Positions 3,123 to 49,544 are shown, counted from the first letter of the stretch. The stretch is 64,000 nucleotides of DNA from an uncultured Candidatus Saccharibacteria bacterium (GCA_964505005.1 CAZDFQ010000002.1:92310-156309); one strand, 5' to 3'. Notes: generated by a model not told the origin, from the letters alone. Made by a program: numbers and translations.

Positions 3123-3302
3123 ATGGCAAAATTGAAGTATTCAGAAAACTTAATCGCGCTCAAATGTTCGGCCTGCAACCGCCGGAATTATTACACGCGC
3201 AAAAACAAAAAAACTATTGAGCGGAAAATCGAGTTCAAGAAGTTTTGCAAATGGTGTCGAAAACATACATTACATAAAGAGGTTAAAATTACAGGGAAAT
3301 AG
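3123..3302 (+). CDS. rpmG: 50S ribosomal protein L33
   Basis: 59 aa: MAKLKYSENLIALKCSACNRRNYYTRKNKKTIERKIEFKKFCKWCRKHTLHKEVKITGK, with the L33 zinc-ribbon CxxC...CxxC. It is shorter than the ORF-track cutoff, so it was found by manual translation. Confidence 0.8.
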   Translation: MAKLKYSENLIALKCSACNRRNYYTRKNKKTIERKIEFKKFCKWCRKHTLHKEVKITGK

Positions 3303-3498
3303 TTTTCGCACCATTTGCGGGAAAGGGGTTCCGCCAGAGGCGGACAGGCGGGAAAACGGGAGTTTCCCCGTGGCGGAAGTCTTGAAACCGCTGGGTTTCA
3401 AAGAGCGCGAGCGAGTCCACCCAGTTGAGCGAGCGCGAGCAGATGGTGTCACGCACACTATTCACAAGGAGACGAAAATCAGCGGCAAATAGTTTTTT

Positions 3499-3822: not shown

Positions 3823-3869
3823 TTTGACAGATATTCTGATTTACTATCACCAGCGTTGATGTCTTTACA

Positions 3870-4598
3870 TTGCTTGATAAGGAGGATAAAGCCATGGACG
3901 AATGTCGCGAGGCGCCAGTCAGGCCCTGGAAGCGTCCTGAAACACTTTCCGCTTGGGTCGAAATGTTCGGCAGGATCTACGATGAGCACGACGAGGAGAC
4001 GTACCCCGCCGACAAGGAACTCCTAGCCCGCCTCTATGAAGAATGCCTTCGTCTCTTGGAGCCGCTGCGGAAGGAGCAGTTCGAGAAAATCCGAGCCAGG
4101 TTGCCATACCTCTTCGTATGGTTCGTTGCCTGTTTGAGCCGTGCGAAAGTCGGCCTCGCCCGGGCAGCCTGGCACAAGTATCCCGCGGTCTGCCCCTACA
4201 GGTTCGAAGAAGAGAACTGTACTTGCATCATCATTAGGGGCAGCACCTACCGGCCGGATGATCCGCGACTCATTTCGTATCGGGAGGATATCCGCAAGAT
4301 GCCGCAGTCGCTCTATGAGTGGCAGAGCATGTTCCGCCATCTTTTTGGGGCATGCAACGAGCGGGGGCAGACGACGATGGCGGTTCTCTGCCACTTGGGT
4401 GAAGAGGCACAGGAATTCGGCGAGCAATTCCGGTTCGGGAACAAGGGCAGGATGGAGGAGGCCGCCGATTTCTTCGCTTGGTGGTGCGGGGCCGCGACGA
4501 AACTCGGTATCCAAAATGCGGAGGATCTTCTCTGGCGGCATTACCCCGGAGTGTGCGATGTTTGCGCGCTCCCGCGATGCCGCTGTCCGAAGGTTTGA
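3870..4598 (+). CDS. Cys-rich hypothetical protein with a MazG-like NTP pyrophosphohydrolase-type helical motif, in a GC-rich foreign-looking patch
   Basis: LGEEAQEFGEQFRF...EEAADFFAWWCGAATKLGI resembles the MazG EExxE / EExxD motif pair. C-terminal CDVCALPRCRCP. Local GC is far above neighbouring genes, and overlapping shadow ORFs appear on both strands. Confidence 0.4.
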   Translation: MLDKEDKAMDECREAPVRPWKRPETLSAWVEMFGRIYDEHDEETYPADKELLARLYEECLRLLEPLRKEQFEKIRARLPYLFVWFVACLSRAKVGLARAAWHKYPAVCPYRFEEENCTCIIIRGSTYRPDDPRLISYREDIRKMPQSLYEWQSMFRHLFGACNERGQTTMAVLCHLGEEAQEFGEQFRFGNKGRMEEAADFFAWWCGAATKLGIQNAEDLLWRHYPGVCDVCALPRCRCPKV

Positions 4599-45057: not shown

Positions 45058-46275
45058 ATGAATTATATCGTCGGCCTTGACATCGGCACCTCCATGCTCA
45101 AAGCGGCCGTGGCCGAAATTAAAAACAACCGGCCGGTCCTCCGGGCCGTTTTTAAAGAACCGGCCGTCGGCTTAAGGCACGGCGCGGTCATTGAAATCGG
45201 TGAAGTTTCGCCGGCCGTGGGCCGGCTTTTCAGCGAGGTGAAAAAAAATTACAAGCCGGCCCTGAAAAATGTCTATATCAACATCGGCACCCCGCAGATA
45301 AAAGTTCAGGCCTCCCGCGGGATTGTGCCGGTCTCCCGGGCCGACAGCGAGATTTACCGCGACGACATCGAAAAAGCCGTCAAAGCCAGCCAGGCGATAA
45401 ACCTCCCCCAGAACCGGCTGATTATCCACAATGTCACCCGGGAATTCATCGTTGACGGCGTGGGAGACATCATCGACCCCCTGGGATTGAGCGGCAGCCG
45501 TTTGGAGGTCAATTGTTTCGTCATCGATGCTTTCAGTCCTCATGTGAAAAATTTGATGAGGGCCGTGGAAATCGCCGGCGCCAGAATTTCCGGACTGGTT
45601 TTCAATTCTTTAATATCGAGCCGGGCGGCTTTAAGTAAATCTCAGAAAGATTTGGGGACGGTTCTAATTGACATCGGTTCCGGCGTGACGAGCTTCGCCG
45701 TTTTTGAAGAAAATAAATTGGTCGGCGCCGGCATCATTCCTTTGGGTGCCGGCAATATAACCAACGATTTGGCCGTCGGCCTGAAGATTCCGGTGGCTGC
45801 CGCGGAAAATCTGAAGCTCCACTACGGTTATGCTTTGGCGAAAGAAGTAAGTTCAAAAGAAACGATTGAGCTTAAAAAATTTTCTCCGAATGATAAGGGT
45901 ATGGCTTCGCGGCGTTTTATGGCCGAGATAATCGAGTCGCGGCTTGCCGAAATTCTGGAATTCGTCGATAATGAACTGAAATCGTTCGGGAAATCGGGCA
46001 AGCTGGCTGGCGGTGTGGTCCTGGTCGGCGGCGGCGCGAAAATGCCCGGCCTGACCGAACTCGCCAAACAAGAGCTGAAACTTTCCGCTCAAATCGGCCT
46101 GACCCTGCGCGAGGAATGGGGAAACGAAGGCAATGACTTCCTCGATGTTTTCGAGGACCCGGAATTCGTCAATGCCTTGGGCTTGGTTCTCTGGGCTTTT
46201 GACAACGAACGCCGCCAGTCGTCAGCAGTTTCCATTTCCAAATTCAAGGATTTCTGGAAATATTTTATGCCCTAA
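45058..46275 (+). CDS. ftsA: Cell division protein FtsA
   Basis: MNYIVGLDIGTSMLKAAVAE; actin-like with the SHS2 insert. Confidence 0.85.
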   Translation: MNYIVGLDIGTSMLKAAVAEIKNNRPVLRAVFKEPAVGLRHGAVIEIGEVSPAVGRLFSEVKKNYKPALKNVYINIGTPQIKVQASRGIVPVSRADSEIYRDDIEKAVKASQAINLPQNRLIIHNVTREFIVDGVGDIIDPLGLSGSRLEVNCFVIDAFSPHVKNLMRAVEIAGARISGLVFNSLISSRAALSKSQKDLGTVLIDIGSGVTSFAVFEENKLVGAGIIPLGAGNITNDLAVGLKIPVAAAENLKLHYGYALAKEVSSKETIELKKFSPNDKGMASRRFMAEIIESRLAEILEFVDNELKSFGKSGKLAGGVVLVGGGAKMPGLTELAKQELKLSAQIGLTLREEWGNEGNDFLDVFEDPEFVNALGLVLWAFDNERRQSSAVSISKFKDFWKYFMP

Positions 46276-46417
46276 ATGAAATCCTGAAATGGGGTATATA
46301 AATTCGTAGCATTCGCATCCATTCGCAGATTAGCATTATATTCAAGCCGCTTAACCATAATGCGAATGACCCGAATTATATATGCGAATGATGCGAAAAA
46401 TAATTAAGATTAAGATT

Positions 46418-47635
46418 ATGAAGATGAAAAGGGTCCATCCGAGAATCAAAAAGGAGAAAACGAGCAATGCTTCGATAAACATCAAGGTTGTCGGCATTGG
46501 CGGCGGTGGCGGCAATGCGGTATCCCGAATGAGCAGGAATTTCATCCGCGGCGTGGAATTCATCGCCATTAACACCGACCATCAGGATTTGGACCACACC
46601 TCGGTCCGCCGGAAAATTTACATCGGCCGAAATCTGACCAGGGGCCTGGGCACGGGCATGAACCCCGAGCTCGGCCGCCAGGCCGCTGAAGAGAACCGGA
46701 GTGAAATCGCCGAGACCCTGAAAGGCGCGGATTTGATTTTTATCGCCGCGGGCCTGGGCGGCGGCACCGGCAGTGGGGCCGCGCCAGTGGTCGCGGAGAT
46801 CGCCAAACAATCCGGCGCCCTGACCCTGGCTTTCGTGACCAGACCATTTGCTTTCGAAGGCGTGCAGCGCGAGCGCATTGCTCAGGAAGGCATTGTCAAG
46901 CTCCGCGACAAAGTGGACGCTTTAGTTGTCGTGCCCAATGACCGAATCTTCAGCATTATCTCCAAAGACACGCCGCTTCTGAAGGCCTTTGAAGCCATCG
47001 ACGATGTTCTGCGGAACGCGCTTCAGGGCATTGTCGAGCTGATTGTGGTGCCGGGCATTATCAATCTCGATTTCGCCGATGTGAAATCGATTATGGAAGG
47101 CACCGGCGCGGCGATTGTGGGCTTGGGCGTGGCGGCCGGACCGGAGCGGGCCGTGGAAGCGGTGCGCCAGGCGATAAATTCGCCGCTTCTCGAAATCAGC
47201 GCCGAAGGCGCCAAGGGCATTTTGCTCGGCGTGGCCGGCGGCCGGGACTTGAAAATGAATGAAGTTAACGAAGCAGCGCGGCTGGTGGCCCAGGCCGCGG
47301 ACCCGGCAGCGAGAATCATTTTCGGCGCCTACCGCGACCGGAACATCAGGCCGAACCAGCTGAAAATAATTCTCATTGCCACCGGTCTCAACGGCCTGAC
47401 GCACGCCAATTCTCTTTTCGGGACTTTTCAGGCCAAGCGGGAAAATTTGCTCAAAGAGGAAAAAGAGCCACCGTCGAGGTTAGACGAATCGCCGATTGCC
47501 GGCTCCAAAGAAAAAATTTCTCCCTTAGCTGCTGATAAAACTGCTTACCCCGAATCAAAAAAGAAACCTCCTAAAGCCGACAAGGACAGCGAAATCTGGG
47601 ACATTCCTACTTTCCTGCGTAAAAAGAGAAAGTAG
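46418..47635 (+). CDS. ftsZ: Cell division protein FtsZ. Start chosen at the ATG 46418; the track ORF begins at 46382, inside the promoter repeat.
   Basis: IKVVGIGGGGGNAVSRM...GGGTGSGAAPVVAEIAK (tubulin signature) and a C-terminal DIPTFLRKKR tail. Confidence 0.9.
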   Translation: MKMKRVHPRIKKEKTSNASINIKVVGIGGGGGNAVSRMSRNFIRGVEFIAINTDHQDLDHTSVRRKIYIGRNLTRGLGTGMNPELGRQAAEENRSEIAETLKGADLIFIAAGLGGGTGSGAAPVVAEIAKQSGALTLAFVTRPFAFEGVQRERIAQEGIVKLRDKVDALVVVPNDRIFSIISKDTPLLKAFEAIDDVLRNALQGIVELIVVPGIINLDFADVKSIMEGTGAAIVGLGVAAGPERAVEAVRQAINSPLLEISAEGAKGILLGVAGGRDLKMNEVNEAARLVAQAADPAARIIFGAYRDRNIRPNQLKIILIATGLNGLTHANSLFGTFQAKRENLLKEEKEPPSRLDESPIAGSKEKISPLAADKTAYPESKKKPPKADKDSEIWDIPTFLRKKRK

Positions 47636-47699
47636 GAATGTCCCAAGGGAAGGGGGTCGGTCAATCCACTCACCCCGACCCCCGGCTTAAGAAACCTCC

Positions 47700-48000
47700 G
47701 GTTTCTTACGTCGCTCGCTACGCTTGCTCCTATTTTTCCACCACGGGGTGAGCGGTGCGCTTCTCCCGCATCGGAAGGCAAGGAGCGAAGCGACTGTCGG
47801 AAACCGAGGGTGTCCGAGATAGTGGGGGCGGGAGAAGCGCGAAGAACGGCAGTTTCCCGTGTAGGAAATTACTCAAAACCGAGAGGTTGTGAGGGAGCTC
47901 CGACGAATGTCGGAGCGACGGGGAATTCCCGACCTTTTTGAGAAGGAAGAAAAGGTAGAGTAAATTCCATACCCCTTTAACATAAAATAGAGGCTCTCTC
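47700..48000 (+). ncRNA. Candidate structured non-coding RNA of unknown class. Strand uncertain.
   Basis: About 300 bp without a credible ORF, GC-rich. It has long-range complementarity gcgcttctcccgc (47757-47769) / gcgggagaagcgc (47833-47845) and local hairpins (gctccgac-gaat-gtcggagc). A promoter-like ttgaaa...tataat lies at 48035-48075, just before the next gene. Confidence 0.25.
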
Positions 48001-48091
48001 CACTCGATGCTCTATCGTCTACCCCAAAATGACTTGAAATTGCTTGCGTTCCATAAGTATAATAGTATAATTTACTCGAAGAATTAAAAAT

Positions 48092-48478
48092 ATGGCAGCA
48101 CGAGAAAACGAAGTGGTCAAAAAAGTAATCACATTTATTCAGAAACAACAATCGGAACGCTTCCGCGTGCTTAACAATACTGCTGGGTCGGATAAAAAGA
48201 TTATAAACGGACAGTTTCCAGACATTATCTTCTTACAGAAAGAACCGCCTCCGAACAATAACATATTGTTTGTGATGAGGGTGGAGAATGGAGGTAATAT
48301 GGTTGATAGCATCCCGGTATGGAGAGCGCTTGGAAGTGCGCCGAGTGCTTTTTATATCGTTGTCCCCAAAAATAAGGTGGATGAAGCGAAAAAACTTGCT
48401 ATTGCTACGGGTGTTCGAGCGCGATTTGCATGGTTCGAAATGGAGGGAGATAAAGTAAAACAAGTTAACTATGAGTAA
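48092..48478 (+). CDS. Hypothetical protein (128 aa), first gene of an overlapping pair
   Basis: No recognised motif. GC is lower than in flanking housekeeping genes. Its stop overlaps the next ATG by 8 nt (atgagtaa). Confidence 0.4.
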   Translation: MAARENEVVKKVITFIQKQQSERFRVLNNTAGSDKKIINGQFPDIIFLQKEPPPNNNILFVMRVENGGNMVDSIPVWRALGSAPSAFYIVVPKNKVDEAKKLAIATGVRARFAWFEMEGDKVKQVNYE

Positions 48479-48923
48479 TCTTATTATCGGTGCGTTACTT
48501 GCAGTTTTCGGCGGCTACATCGGCGACGAGATTCGTTCTTGGCGACAACGTTGCAACGAACGAAAGGCAATTAAGATTTCTCTTTGCGACGAACTTAGTA
48601 TAATAGAATCAACGATAAACAATATGCATCAAGTTTGGGAAAATGCCAAAGTTTTTCCACAAAACTTCGTTGCCGATTTATTATCCAATACCATTGCTTA
48701 CGACGGCCTTCGGACAAGGCTGTTTCTTATAAAGGATGCTACACTTCGGAAGAAAATAGTTGCTTTTTACAAGAAACTTAGGGACACAGTAAAGAAAACC
48801 GAAGGGAAAATTGGTACCCTTGCTCAAACACCAGAAGCGGCTGCGGAACAAAATGCTTTTGACACTTCATTTCAAACGCTCGGAACAGAAGCCAAAGATA
48901 TTAAAGAGGCTCTCGAAAAATAA
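48471..48923 (+). CDS. Hypothetical N-terminally membrane-anchored protein (150 aa), translationally coupled to 48092
   Basis: MSNLIIGALLAVFGGYIGDEI (TM), then a helical soluble domain. Confidence 0.4.
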   Translation: MSNLIIGALLAVFGGYIGDEIRSWRQRCNERKAIKISLCDELSIIESTINNMHQVWENAKVFPQNFVADLLSNTIAYDGLRTRLFLIKDATLRKKIVAFYKKLRDTVKKTEGKIGTLAQTPEAAAEQNAFDTSFQTLGTEAKDIKEALEK

Positions 48924-49059
48924 TTGTTTTAGAATGTCCTATTCTGTAAATTATGTTTCTACGAGATAGATTCGAAGTTGTTCATAATTTGTCTATCCTT
49001 CTATCGATTTATTGAGTGTCAGCGGTTCCGTTTCCATTGACTCGCCGGTGATTTTTGAT

Positions 49060-49187
49060 TAACCGGCCGCCGATAATTGCCCGATTTGTTTTTTAATACG
49101 GACAGGTCTTCCTTCTGTATATTTTTCAATCTTGGCAATGGAGTCCGCTATATCCTTGATGTAGAGCTCGGGTTTTCTTTTAGACAT
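49060..49187 (-). pseudogene. Truncated HepT (DUF86) toxin remnant overlapping the MNT stop (42 codons, then a stop)
   Basis: Minus-strand translation MSKRKPELYIKDIADSIAKIEKYTEGRPVRIKKQIGQLSAAG*. The N-terminus matches HepT (LxDIxxxIxxIExY). Its ATG overlaps the MNT stop in the atgtctaa arrangement. It is far shorter than the ~110-140 aa of intact HepT. Confidence 0.45.
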
Positions 49188-49512
49188 AAATTGTTTCCTG
49201 AAGAATATCTGCCTTAATGGCGTCTTTCAGCGCTTTTTTGGAAATCAAATCAACCTTTCTCCCCAGAACCTCGCTTAAAAAATTTTCCAAGCGTATAAAA
49301 TCGAAGAATCCGATGGGCGCGTCGAATTCAACGAGAATATCGACGTCACTCCCGTTTTTTTGTTCTTCGCGGGCGAAAGAGCCGAAAATACCCAGTTTTT
49401 TTATATGAAATCTGGACTTCAATAACGGCAGCTGGGCGCTTATTTTCTTTCTTATCTCTTCTTTTTCCGTTTCCATAAATTCAACTATAGGTGATATTTT
49501 GCGGCCCCGCAA
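49180..49512 (-). CDS. Nucleotidyltransferase-domain protein (MNT/MntA-type antitoxin)
   Basis: GIFGSFAREEQKNGSDVDILVEF, the GSxxRGxxxxxSDxD polymerase-beta-like NTase motif. Confidence 0.75.
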   Translation of the reverse strand: MRGRKISPIVEFMETEKEEIRKKISAQLPLLKSRFHIKKLGIFGSFAREEQKNGSDVDILVEFDAPIGFFDFIRLENFLSEVLGRKVDLISKKALKDAIKADILQETIYV

Positions 49513-49544
49513 GACGGCAGACGATTATGCGACCGCTAAAATTT

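Follow-up and report, generated by a model that had tools for sequence, protein, structure and literature searches.

In integrons and in the CTX phage, a tyrosine recombinase that acts in trans swaps one strand between a folded hairpin site (attC or attP(+)) and a duplex target, and the product is resolved by replication. Phage 21 and e14, which integrate in icd, and the islands found in the 3' ends of tRNA and transfer-messenger RNA (tmRNA) genes supply a surrogate gene end to the gene that they enter. Here, we analyze a locus with likenesses to both kinds of system, namely the segment that follows ftsZ in a stretch of 64,000 nucleotides (nt) of DNA from an uncultured Candidatus Saccharibacteria bacterium (GCA_964505005.1 CAZDFQ010000002.1:92310-156309; this whole stretch is called the window), which its closest FtsZ homologues mark as a Patescibacteria (Liptonbacteria-like) genome. 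The C-terminal peptide of FtsZ anchors the division ring to FtsA, and in the window this peptide is encoded twice. In our judgement the segment is likely to be a mobile element, small, cassette-like and non-autonomous, that entered ftsZ just short of its 3' end, and it probably represents an undescribed element family: in the searchable literature on Patescibacteria mobile elements, on tRNA and structured RNA and on surrogate 3' ends no such element is described, and a study of group I introns in Patescibacteria tRNA genes makes no mention of it (PMC13011429).

Two features of the locus had escaped an earlier note that was made on the window from its sequence. The strongest hairpin is a perfect stem of 18 bp (47597-47614/47628-47645) that encloses the stop codon of ftsZ, and further downstream a second FtsZ C-terminal peptide, EFPTFLRRKKR, is followed by its own stop codon (47921-47958), while the tail of the gene itself reads DIPTFLRKKRK. 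The segment is organized in the order a-b, a', core and X' (Table 1), in which a-b is the end of the gene as it is read today, a' is an antisense copy of a, the core consists of the joining regions J1 and J2 and the paired regions P2, P3 and P4, and X' is the second gene end. At ftsZ, a' is complementary to a in 18 of 18 positions and pairs less well with the start of X'. P2 has a loop of 17 nt here, and elsewhere in the family described below it comprises 9 bp with a GNNA loop; the sequence and length of P4 vary from copy to copy, and the block formed by J2 and P3 is identical in the related ftsZ locus L004 and in 11 loci from metagenomes. With a covariance model of the core, 47817-47897 scores 68-70 bits (E 6e-21 at 70 bits). 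The start of the displaced tail is in itself a perfect palindrome (GGGAATTCCC, 47919-47931) with a T-run behind it, and a change of one codon, from the I of the clade consensus to F, is what makes this tail a terminator-like hairpin.

Table 1. Coordinates of the ftsZ element, of its rpmG counterpart and of the adjoining genes, counted from the first letter of the window.
Feature	Position	Strand	Remarks
ftsA	45058-46275
ftsZ	46382-47635	+	stop codon 47633-35
a, left arm TGGGACATTCCTACTTTC	47597..47614	+	codons W-D-I-P-T-F, ftsZ frame in use
Native/surrogate junction	at or just 3' of T47597		switch from clade-typical to atypical at the Trp codon
Surrogate, putatively element-borne FtsZ tail DIPTFLRKKRK and stop	47598..47635	+
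a', antisense arm GAAAGTAGGAATGTCCCA	47628..47645	+	overlaps the ftsZ stop codon
J1, joining region AGGGAAGGGGGTCGG	47646..47660	+	agrees with the family consensus; covariance-model alignment
Extra ~170 nt in J1	47661..47828	+	absent from every other family member (L004 and 11 loci compared)
Hairpin within the extra ~170 nt	47683-47713		fold
P2-like hairpin within the extra ~170 nt	47744-68		includes the 13-nt arm 47757-69
GGAGCGAAGCGAC within the extra ~170 nt	47782-94
P3-like hairpin within the extra ~170 nt	47797-47817
P2, CGGGAGA ... TTTCCCG	47829..47859	+	17-nt loop; covariance-model alignment
J2 TGTAGGAAATTA and P3 CTCAAAACC-GAGA-GGTTGTGAG	47860..47893	+	most conserved block of the core
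P4, variable hairpin GCTCCGAC-GAAT-GTCGGAGC, and core 3' end GCGAC	47897..47919	+
X', displaced, probably native FtsZ tail (W)EFPTFLRRKKR and stop	47920..47958	+	frame +2 relative to ftsZ
Terminator-like hairpin CGGGGAATTCCCG, then T-run	47919-47940	+	consensus match only; built from the start of X'
Second, diverged element copy	3247..3492	+	3' end of rpmG (L33, 3123-3302)
a of the rpmG copy	3247-3263
a' of the rpmG copy	3303-3318
Core of the rpmG copy	3319-3440
X' of the rpmG copy	~3441-3492		encodes ..HTIHKETKISGK and stop, versus HTLHKEVKITGK and stop in the gene

The observation of a structured, GC-rich (guanine plus cytosine) segment made by the earlier note is confirmed, and its interpretation is partly supported. 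The GC content is 46% in the window and locally 58% in the segment, and between ftsZ and the next gene, which starts at 48092, no credible open reading frame (ORF) is found. Perfect inverted repeats of 18 bp and 13 bp stand against a maximum of 12 bp in 300 dinucleotide shuffles of 47500-48150, and with fold z-scores of -4.8 for the + strand and -4.0 for the - strand, folding exceeds chance on both strands. The individual pairings that had been listed are present as well: the hairpin GGGGGTCGG/CCGACCCCC (47652-60/47675-83), the 13-bp perfect pair GCGCTTCTCCCGC/GCGGGAGAAGCGC (47757-69/47828-40) and the pair CACGGG/CCCGTG, which belongs to a 13-nt repeat with 85% complementarity (47735-47/47856-68). 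The first of these hairpins had been taken for the terminator of ftsZ, yet it lacks the T-run of an intrinsic terminator, and the sole terminator-like site of the segment is CGGGGAATTCCCG with the T-run behind it. The left arm of the hairpin GGGGGTCGG/CCGACCCCC is at the same time the last 9 nt of J1, and the right-hand 13-mer of the perfect pair (47828-40) is the 5' arm of P2 together with part of its loop. A riboswitch or leader of the operon that starts at 48092, or a housekeeping RNA such as ribonuclease P (RNase P), would suit a GC-rich, structured, non-coding segment located 5' of an operon with a promoter-like site, and fragments of the segment had been likened to RNase P motifs. The promoter-like site does exist, albeit as TTGAAA-N18-TATAAT at 48034-48063 and not with the N17 spacing and the limits (48035-48075) given before, but it lies 3' of the segment; the core recurs beside unrelated genes and with different genes downstream; and in L004 the gene directly 3' of the element is a convergent rmuC. 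The Rfam scan returned only chance-level hairpin matches and no family at E<=10 in the segment, and because no Rfam family, RNase P included, matches either strand of 47500-48150 even at this threshold, the RNase P resemblance is unsupported. ARAGORN and the Rfam tRNA model call neither a tmRNA nor a tRNA in 47500-48100 or on the cores, and the cores of the 11 other loci remain unmatched at E<=1 by any family of Rfam 15, be it a riboswitch, leader, small RNA, ribozyme, intron or HEARO. Apart from chance-level hairpins, the scans of the window and of these loci, run at gathering and at permissive thresholds, brought up tRNAs alone. We therefore regard a leader or housekeeping RNA as extremely improbable.

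The arrangement found at ftsZ recurs at unrelated genes. L004 (FtsZ identity 67%) is the sole one of 80 related ftsZ loci that also carries a second tail; its two tails are only ~125 nt apart, and the stretch between them contains a 42-nt block identical to window positions 47856-47897. A metagenome search with an exact 23-mer from this block led to 11 loci, and the covariance model of the core revealed the diverged second copy in the window. In all, 15 copies are known, several of which stem from the same assemblies. Ten of the 11 metagenome loci, L004 and both sites in the window share the same layout; the remaining locus (L092) ends at the end of its contig, so that its target is not identifiable, and was left out of this count. 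In this layout, a is followed by b up to the stop codon or the 3' end of the tRNA, often with a terminator-like hairpin; a short antisense copy a' stands before the core in most copies; the core of ~85 nt comprises J1 (GGGAAGGGGGT), P2, J2 (TGTAGGAAATTA), P3, the variable P4 and usually GCGAC; and X', the diverged second copy of the gene end with its own versions of a and b, comes last. GCGAC directly precedes X' in nine of the 13 family-1 copies and is replaced by CCGAC in L095. The unit measures 140-320 nt, the duplicated segment 20-110 nt and the paired segment 9-26 nt. In most copies a' matches the gene-attached a better than X' (18/18 in the window, 12/12 in L090 and L091).

The targets include tRNA-Arg, tRNA-Leu, tRNA-Gly, tRNA-Ile and two further tRNA-like 3' ends, and among protein genes ftsZ (twice), rpmG and alaS-like, rplK-like and pyrG-like genes, the last three recognized by eye. 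One target, the 5' end of a translational GTPase gene, is used in the opposite orientation, and at every target the gene body lies on the a-b side. At the tRNA genes the duplication begins at G53 of the T-arm, and the four tRNA-linked copies with intact upstream sequence have a terminator-like hairpin and a T-run between gene and core. At L100 (reverse strand) the target upstream of the element looks like a 72-nt tRNA-like gene (GCGGGAGG...TCCGATTCCACATCCCGCA) that neither ARAGORN nor the Rfam tRNA model calls.

Within the window itself, a scan of all 64 kb for duplicated C-termini revealed ftsZ and rpmG as the only two cases. The rpmG copy matches the covariance model at 3337-3405 (E 5e-9; 36.6 bits, R1; 61.7 bits, R2), bears an extra hairpin of 15 nt in J1, and is followed by tRNA-Trp directly 3' of the displaced C-terminus of L33. 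Besides L004, no copies were found among the 80 Patescibacteria ftsZ loci (~560 kb) or in 10 rpmG loci. A phage or plasmid origin was rejected: three patterns searched in IMG/VR gave no match save one chance hit inside a coding region, and nothing similar was found among INPHARED phages and PLSDB plasmids.

Which of the two gene ends is native can be judged from related sequences. The ending W[DE]IPTFLRRKK[KR] is shared by nearly all of the 17 closest FtsZ homologues, 11 of which have exactly EIPTFLRRKKR, and the tail in use in the window (..FLRKKRK) is seen in none of the 17. Since the closest homologues share the pattern of X' and the tail in use is atypical, X' (EFPTFLRRKKR) appears to be the lineage's own tail, and the foreign copy is the one in use. 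Deletion of 47598-47920 (323 nt) restores an in-frame ftsZ that ends in ...DSEIWEFPTFLRRKKR and a stop codon. Together, the lineage-like X' and the restored gene suggest that a-b-a'-core arrived as one unit and went in where the native copy of a has its 5' edge. The two gene-end copies diverge as orthologues do: in L095, third codon positions account for 27 of 39 differences (of the codons that differ, 20 are synonymous and 8 non-synonymous), and in L004 for 10 of 11, the protein being unchanged. GC content at third codon positions differs along the same lines in L095 (gene body 0.55, gene-attached end 0.32, X' 0.70) and in rpmG (0.57, 0.24 and 0.65), and weakly in ftsZ (0.67, 0.54 and 0.69), for which the gene-attached end comprises n=13 codons. 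A diversity-generating retroelement was excluded because the differences are not adenine-specific and involve all four bases in both copies; a reverse transcriptase domain is likewise missing among the neighbours scanned.

That removal of 47598-47920 leaves an intact ORF would also fit a self-splicing or otherwise removable intron, in which X' is the true 3' exon and the gene-attached tail an in-frame back-up. Pairing of a' with the start of X' resembles a guide of the P10 type, and group I introns are abundant in Patescibacteria (PMC13011429). The core of ~85 nt, however, matches no intron or ribozyme family of Rfam, the would-be intron contains a terminator-like hairpin at tRNA genes, the X' copies of tRNA ends are damaged (changes in the T-loop, a 1-nt deletion) and X' of rpmG is out of frame, which makes an intron very unlikely. 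Equally small is the probability that we assign to a small protein that carries the FtsZ C-terminal peptide, competes for FtsA and is translationally coupled to ftsZ via the stop-codon hairpin. The tail peptide is conserved at the protein level, and L004 contains an ORF of 45 codons that starts 2 nt past the ftsZ stop codon and ends in DIPTFLRKRRK. This ORF is intact only in L004, though; in the window, the ~170-nt insert and indels of 1 and 2 nt interrupt the frame, and after tRNA genes an open frame recurs but lacks a start codon. Moreover, the compensatory changes in P2 are non-conservative at the protein level (K to E, S to P), X' is in frame with the core in three of five protein-linked copies, near the chance expectation of one in three, and no homologue was found among the 5.8 billion proteins searched.

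Single-sequence folds of seven copies predict mostly one four-way junction (z -2.5 to -5.1), in which P1, formed by a' and the second copy of a at the start of X', closes P2, P3 and P4. Covariation in homologous loci, which the earlier note had named as a check, is found: the segment includes a conserved structured core with compensatory changes. In P2, four of nine pairs are altered on both sides and 99% of the cells are paired, as compared with ~50% for a slid partner; the main family shows no variation in P3, which is partly covered by the search pattern, but two compensatory pairs appear there in the rpmG copy. In 10 of 13 copies, the start of X' is a better partner for a' than shuffled sequence is, no more than 6 of 300 shuffles doing equally well. 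A pairing of 'GUCG' in J1 with a 3' 'CGAC' was dropped, as by eye it is absent from the L091/L096 subfamily. The pairs in P2 are strand-specific: four to five G-U pairs and zero A-C pairs indicate that the folded strand is the + strand and argue against a double-stranded cruciform. Quasipalindrome correction is a known mutational process, and the perfect a:a' stems may in part be due to it rather than to the origin of the element.

This RNA-like covariation in P2 and P3, together with G-U pairs only on the + strand and GNRA-like loops, is what a functional non-coding RNA would also display. In such a case, the core would act on the transcript of its neighbour, either as a small RNA or as a module of the 3' untranslated region, for instance in RNA stabilization or processing, with a' as antisense guide, and the duplicated gene ends would be by-products of the spread of the module. 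Consistent with this, a' is complementary to the transcript of the target gene itself, and no terminator separates gene and core at ftsZ, rpmG and the alaS-like gene. On the other hand, a terminator-like hairpin with a T-run precedes the core in the four tRNA-linked copies mentioned above and by eye no promoter is shared; the foreign, orthologue-like gene end is left unaccounted for, and an independent small RNA, as the earlier note had suggested, likewise leaves the duplicated ends unexplained. Furthermore, closer relatives are without the element, so that it is not a needed regulator. We consider a non-coding RNA function of this kind rather unlikely.

Presence and absence among relatives accord with mobility. 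In the closer relatives L082 and L088, ftsZ is directly adjoined by rmuC without the element, and L087, the FtsZ of which is 94.6% identical to that of L004, lacks it too. In L091, a near-identical duplication of ~65 nt includes the tRNA terminator, and the near-identity suggests a recent event. Directly to the right of X' in L091 (reverse strand), a decayed older copy (..AAAAGGTCGGCTGCAAGCTTCCCGCGTTTGGACTACTCACCCGAAACC..) was recognized by eye, which suggests repeated insertion at the same tRNA-Leu gene. No recombinase, transposase or reverse transcriptase domains were found in the 10 nearest neighbouring ORFs scanned. A miniature inverted-repeat transposable element (MITE) was rejected, as by eye terminal inverted repeats are missing and the duplications are 20-110 nt long and diverged.

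The surrogate end next to the gene and the displaced native end, as target-end direct repeats, match those of phage 21 and e14 in icd and of tRNA-gene islands, and the element could thus be a remnant or miniature of an integrase-mediated element, with the gene-end copies as attL and attR and the core as the arm region of attP, mobilized in trans in the manner of cis-mobilizable elements. The tRNA duplications start at G53, the T-loop being the classical crossover site of integrases, and L091 appears to show tandem accretion. A fixed target is nevertheless what such an integrase would use, and one near-identical core occurs at more than 10 unrelated targets, each copy with an antisense a' matched to its target. 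Compensatory changes and strand-specific G-U pairs point to a folded single strand and not to double-stranded arm sites, the unit is without an ORF, no integrase domain occurs in the 10 neighbouring ORFs scanned, and all copies have identical boundaries, an outcome not expected of random deletion. An integrase remnant is therefore, in our estimation, unlikely.

For the preferred cassette-like element, we propose the following model. The mobile unit would be a-b-a'-core, with a-b as an imported target end that includes the stop codon or, at tRNA genes, the terminator. Insertion would take place at the 5' edge of the native copy of a, so that the gene body continues into the imported end while X', the native one, is stranded 3' of the core. 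The target gene would thereby remain intact, which would explain why the element is tolerated in ftsZ, rpmG, tRNA and alaS-, rplK- and pyrG-like genes. In the mobile form, perhaps a small circle, pairing of a' with a would turn the core into a four-way junction, closed by a stem that would thus be a copy of the target, and a trans-acting enzyme would recognize the folded + strand and swap strands with the homologous target. Alternatives that would give the same product are a single-strand transposase with a guide, of the IS200/IS605 type or of the type associated with repetitive extragenic palindromes (REP-associated tyrosine transposase, RAYT), or copy-choice on a small circular template. We infer that the element acts as a folded single strand. 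One core at more than 10 unrelated targets, a target-matched a' and strand-specific pairing argue against a sequence-specific integrase on double-stranded DNA. They favour recognition in which a folded single strand is matched to the target through base pairing or homology, instead of a protein reading a fixed sequence. A DNA intermediate is favoured over RNA because a terminator-like hairpin separates gene and core at tRNA genes. A mechanism with an intron-encoded reverse transcriptase is weakly disfavoured, as group II introns were undetected in the Patescibacteria genomes surveyed (PMC13011429). More tentatively, the cloverleaf may be the attachment site of a programmable single-strand recombination, in which the closing stem would copy whatever sequence is to be entered and the core, served by a trans-acting enzyme, could be redirected to any gene end through a change of a and a'; we hold this to be possible but doubtful.

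Several points weigh against the reading as a mobile element. L087, which has no element, carries the gene-attached tail of L004 and not X', which needs either an older insertion that was then lost in L087 or an L087-like donor. At rpmG, the copy of a within X' is shifted out of frame by 2 nt, and relatives give no clear sign as to which of the two L33 tails is the native one. Ascertainment accounts for part of the invariance of the core, as the loci came from an exact 23-mer search, and the copies number only 15. The extra ~170 nt make up about half of the flagged segment and have no homologue in the sequences compared. Finally, the proposed mechanism is deduced from anatomy alone, no mobile intermediate, enzyme or transcript having been seen, and the model leaves unexplained how a new a/a' pair for a new target originates.

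The extra ~170 nt in J1 of the ftsZ copy probably represent a second insertion or an expansion inside the element. They are flanked by GGGGGTCGG (47652-60) and GGGGGCGG (47824-31) and open with a 14-nt loop, followed by CCGACCCCC (47675-83), the complement of the left repeat GGGGGTCGG; the pairing of the two across the start of the insert is the hairpin previously taken for a terminator. In the 13-bp pair noted before, an arm of the P2-like hairpin of the insert is matched with the 5' arm of the true P2. These ~170 nt may be either a nested insertion or an expansion segment of J1: the former is possible as its layout mirrors, on a small scale, the logic of a, a' and the second copy of a, and the latter as the rpmG copy bears its 15-nt extra hairpin at the same point of J1. 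In ~670 kb of DNA compared, blastn and nhmmer found no homologue of 47661-47828.

The neighbourhood of ftsZ offers some further observations. Between the displaced ftsZ tail and rmuC lies an islet of low GC content (~40%; 48000-49540), which is missing in L082 and L088. Its promoter-like site includes the tandem AGTATAAT AGTATAAT, and it contains two overlapping ORFs (128 and 150 amino acids) without Pfam or PADLOC match and a nucleotidyltransferase of the MNT type (PADLOC candidate PDC-S09) with an ORF of 42 amino acids beside it; promoter-like site and islet are separate from the element. In L083/L084 (FtsZ identity 72%), ftsZ is followed by a gene-free, GC-rich and hairpin-rich stretch of 680 nt (3863-4544), which is unrelated in sequence to the element and has a long terminator-like stem; there too, a hairpin spans the ftsZ stop codon (TGGGACATC / GATGTCTCA). 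In L089 (1500-1810), ftsZ is called with 373 amino acids, and the frame breaks ~160 nt before the normal C-terminal peptide (..IWEIPTFLRRKKR and stop), which is either a frameshift or an assembly error. After tRNA-Trp, L105 (1550-1730), a Liptonbacteria genome, contains ~150 nt of GC-rich hairpins (GCTCCGATCGAAGCATCGGAGC, GAGCGAAGCGAGC) that may be another small repeat or element family, and a GIY-YIG protein of 80 amino acids is encoded just 5' of rpmG in L105, L107 and L108.

If the reading as a mobile element is correct, the FtsZ C-terminal peptide in use in this genome is an import of a mobile element and the original tail lies idle 320 nt downstream, and a gene-less element of ~150 nt can inhabit essential and tRNA genes of streamlined genomes by adapting its closing stem to the target and bringing along a spare gene end. 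Target recognition by base pairing or homology is the property that makes CRISPR, TnpB and bridge-RNA systems useful. Should the element be programmable as well, it would constitute a new class of guide-by-homology mobile element and possibly a template for programmable DNA insertion, in which the replacement end that is carried along would evade the selection against insertion into essential genes. For annotation, chimeric gene ends, tRNA fragments and 'structured intergenic RNAs' of this kind may mislead gene callers and non-coding RNA screens in Patescibacteria.

Compared with described systems, the element is like MITEs in its size and copy number, in having no coding capacity and in being patchily distributed, but MITEs are bounded by terminal inverted repeats and duplicate a short target site of constant length, in contrast to the orthologue-like duplication of 20-110 nt found here. 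With phage 21, e14 and islands in tRNA genes it shares the orthologue-like replacement end, the displaced native fragment and tandem accretion at the same site; those elements comprise kilobases, encode their own sequence-specific integrase and use one target, whereas the units described here are gene-less, ~140-320 nt long and occur at more than 10 targets. Like the structured non-coding module of IS110/IS1111 elements, which encodes bridge (seek) RNAs, the unit has variable parts complementary to both target strands, through which the choice of target would be programmable. The IS110/IS1111 module, however, stands beside a recombinase gene in an element of 1.2-1.5 kb and has guides of 4-7 nt, a core repeat of 2 nt and no surrogate end. 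IS200/IS605 elements and the REP/RAYT system (REPIN) are similarly small, hairpin-rich, strand-specific and without terminal inverted repeats, and in them a short guide 5' of a hairpin pairs with the cleavage or target site, so that a changed guide resets the target, while non-autonomous copies are mobilized in trans; hairpins and a guide-like a' are present here as well. Their guides measure 4 nt and the elements make no duplication, as opposed to a paired segment of 9-26 nt and a target copy that extends to the gene end in the present element, to which no Y1 transposase is linked among the 10 neighbouring ORFs scanned and which the HEARO and IS605 RNA families of Rfam leave unmatched. Further parallels are offered by integron cassettes with attC and by attP(+) of CTX. 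Neither the R'' (RYYYAAC) and R' (GTTRRRY) boxes of attC nor an array occurs here, the repeats being GGGACAT.., GTTCGA.., AAATGGT.. and TTTTGCG.., and no intI/attI platform or dependence on Xer is shown. Instead of a fixed GTTRRRY or dif site, a segment of 9-26 nt varies with the target, and instead of attI or dif, the ends of housekeeping and tRNA genes serve as targets of a three-hairpin junction of conserved sequence. Integron cassettes and CTX nevertheless share with this element the lack of a recombinase of its own, an insertion point that we place at the 5' edge of the repeated segment, a site that exists only as a fold of one strand and has a copy of the target as its closing stem, and the same order of parts: a copy of the core site, cargo, the inverse core, a structured spacer and the core-site copy of the target.

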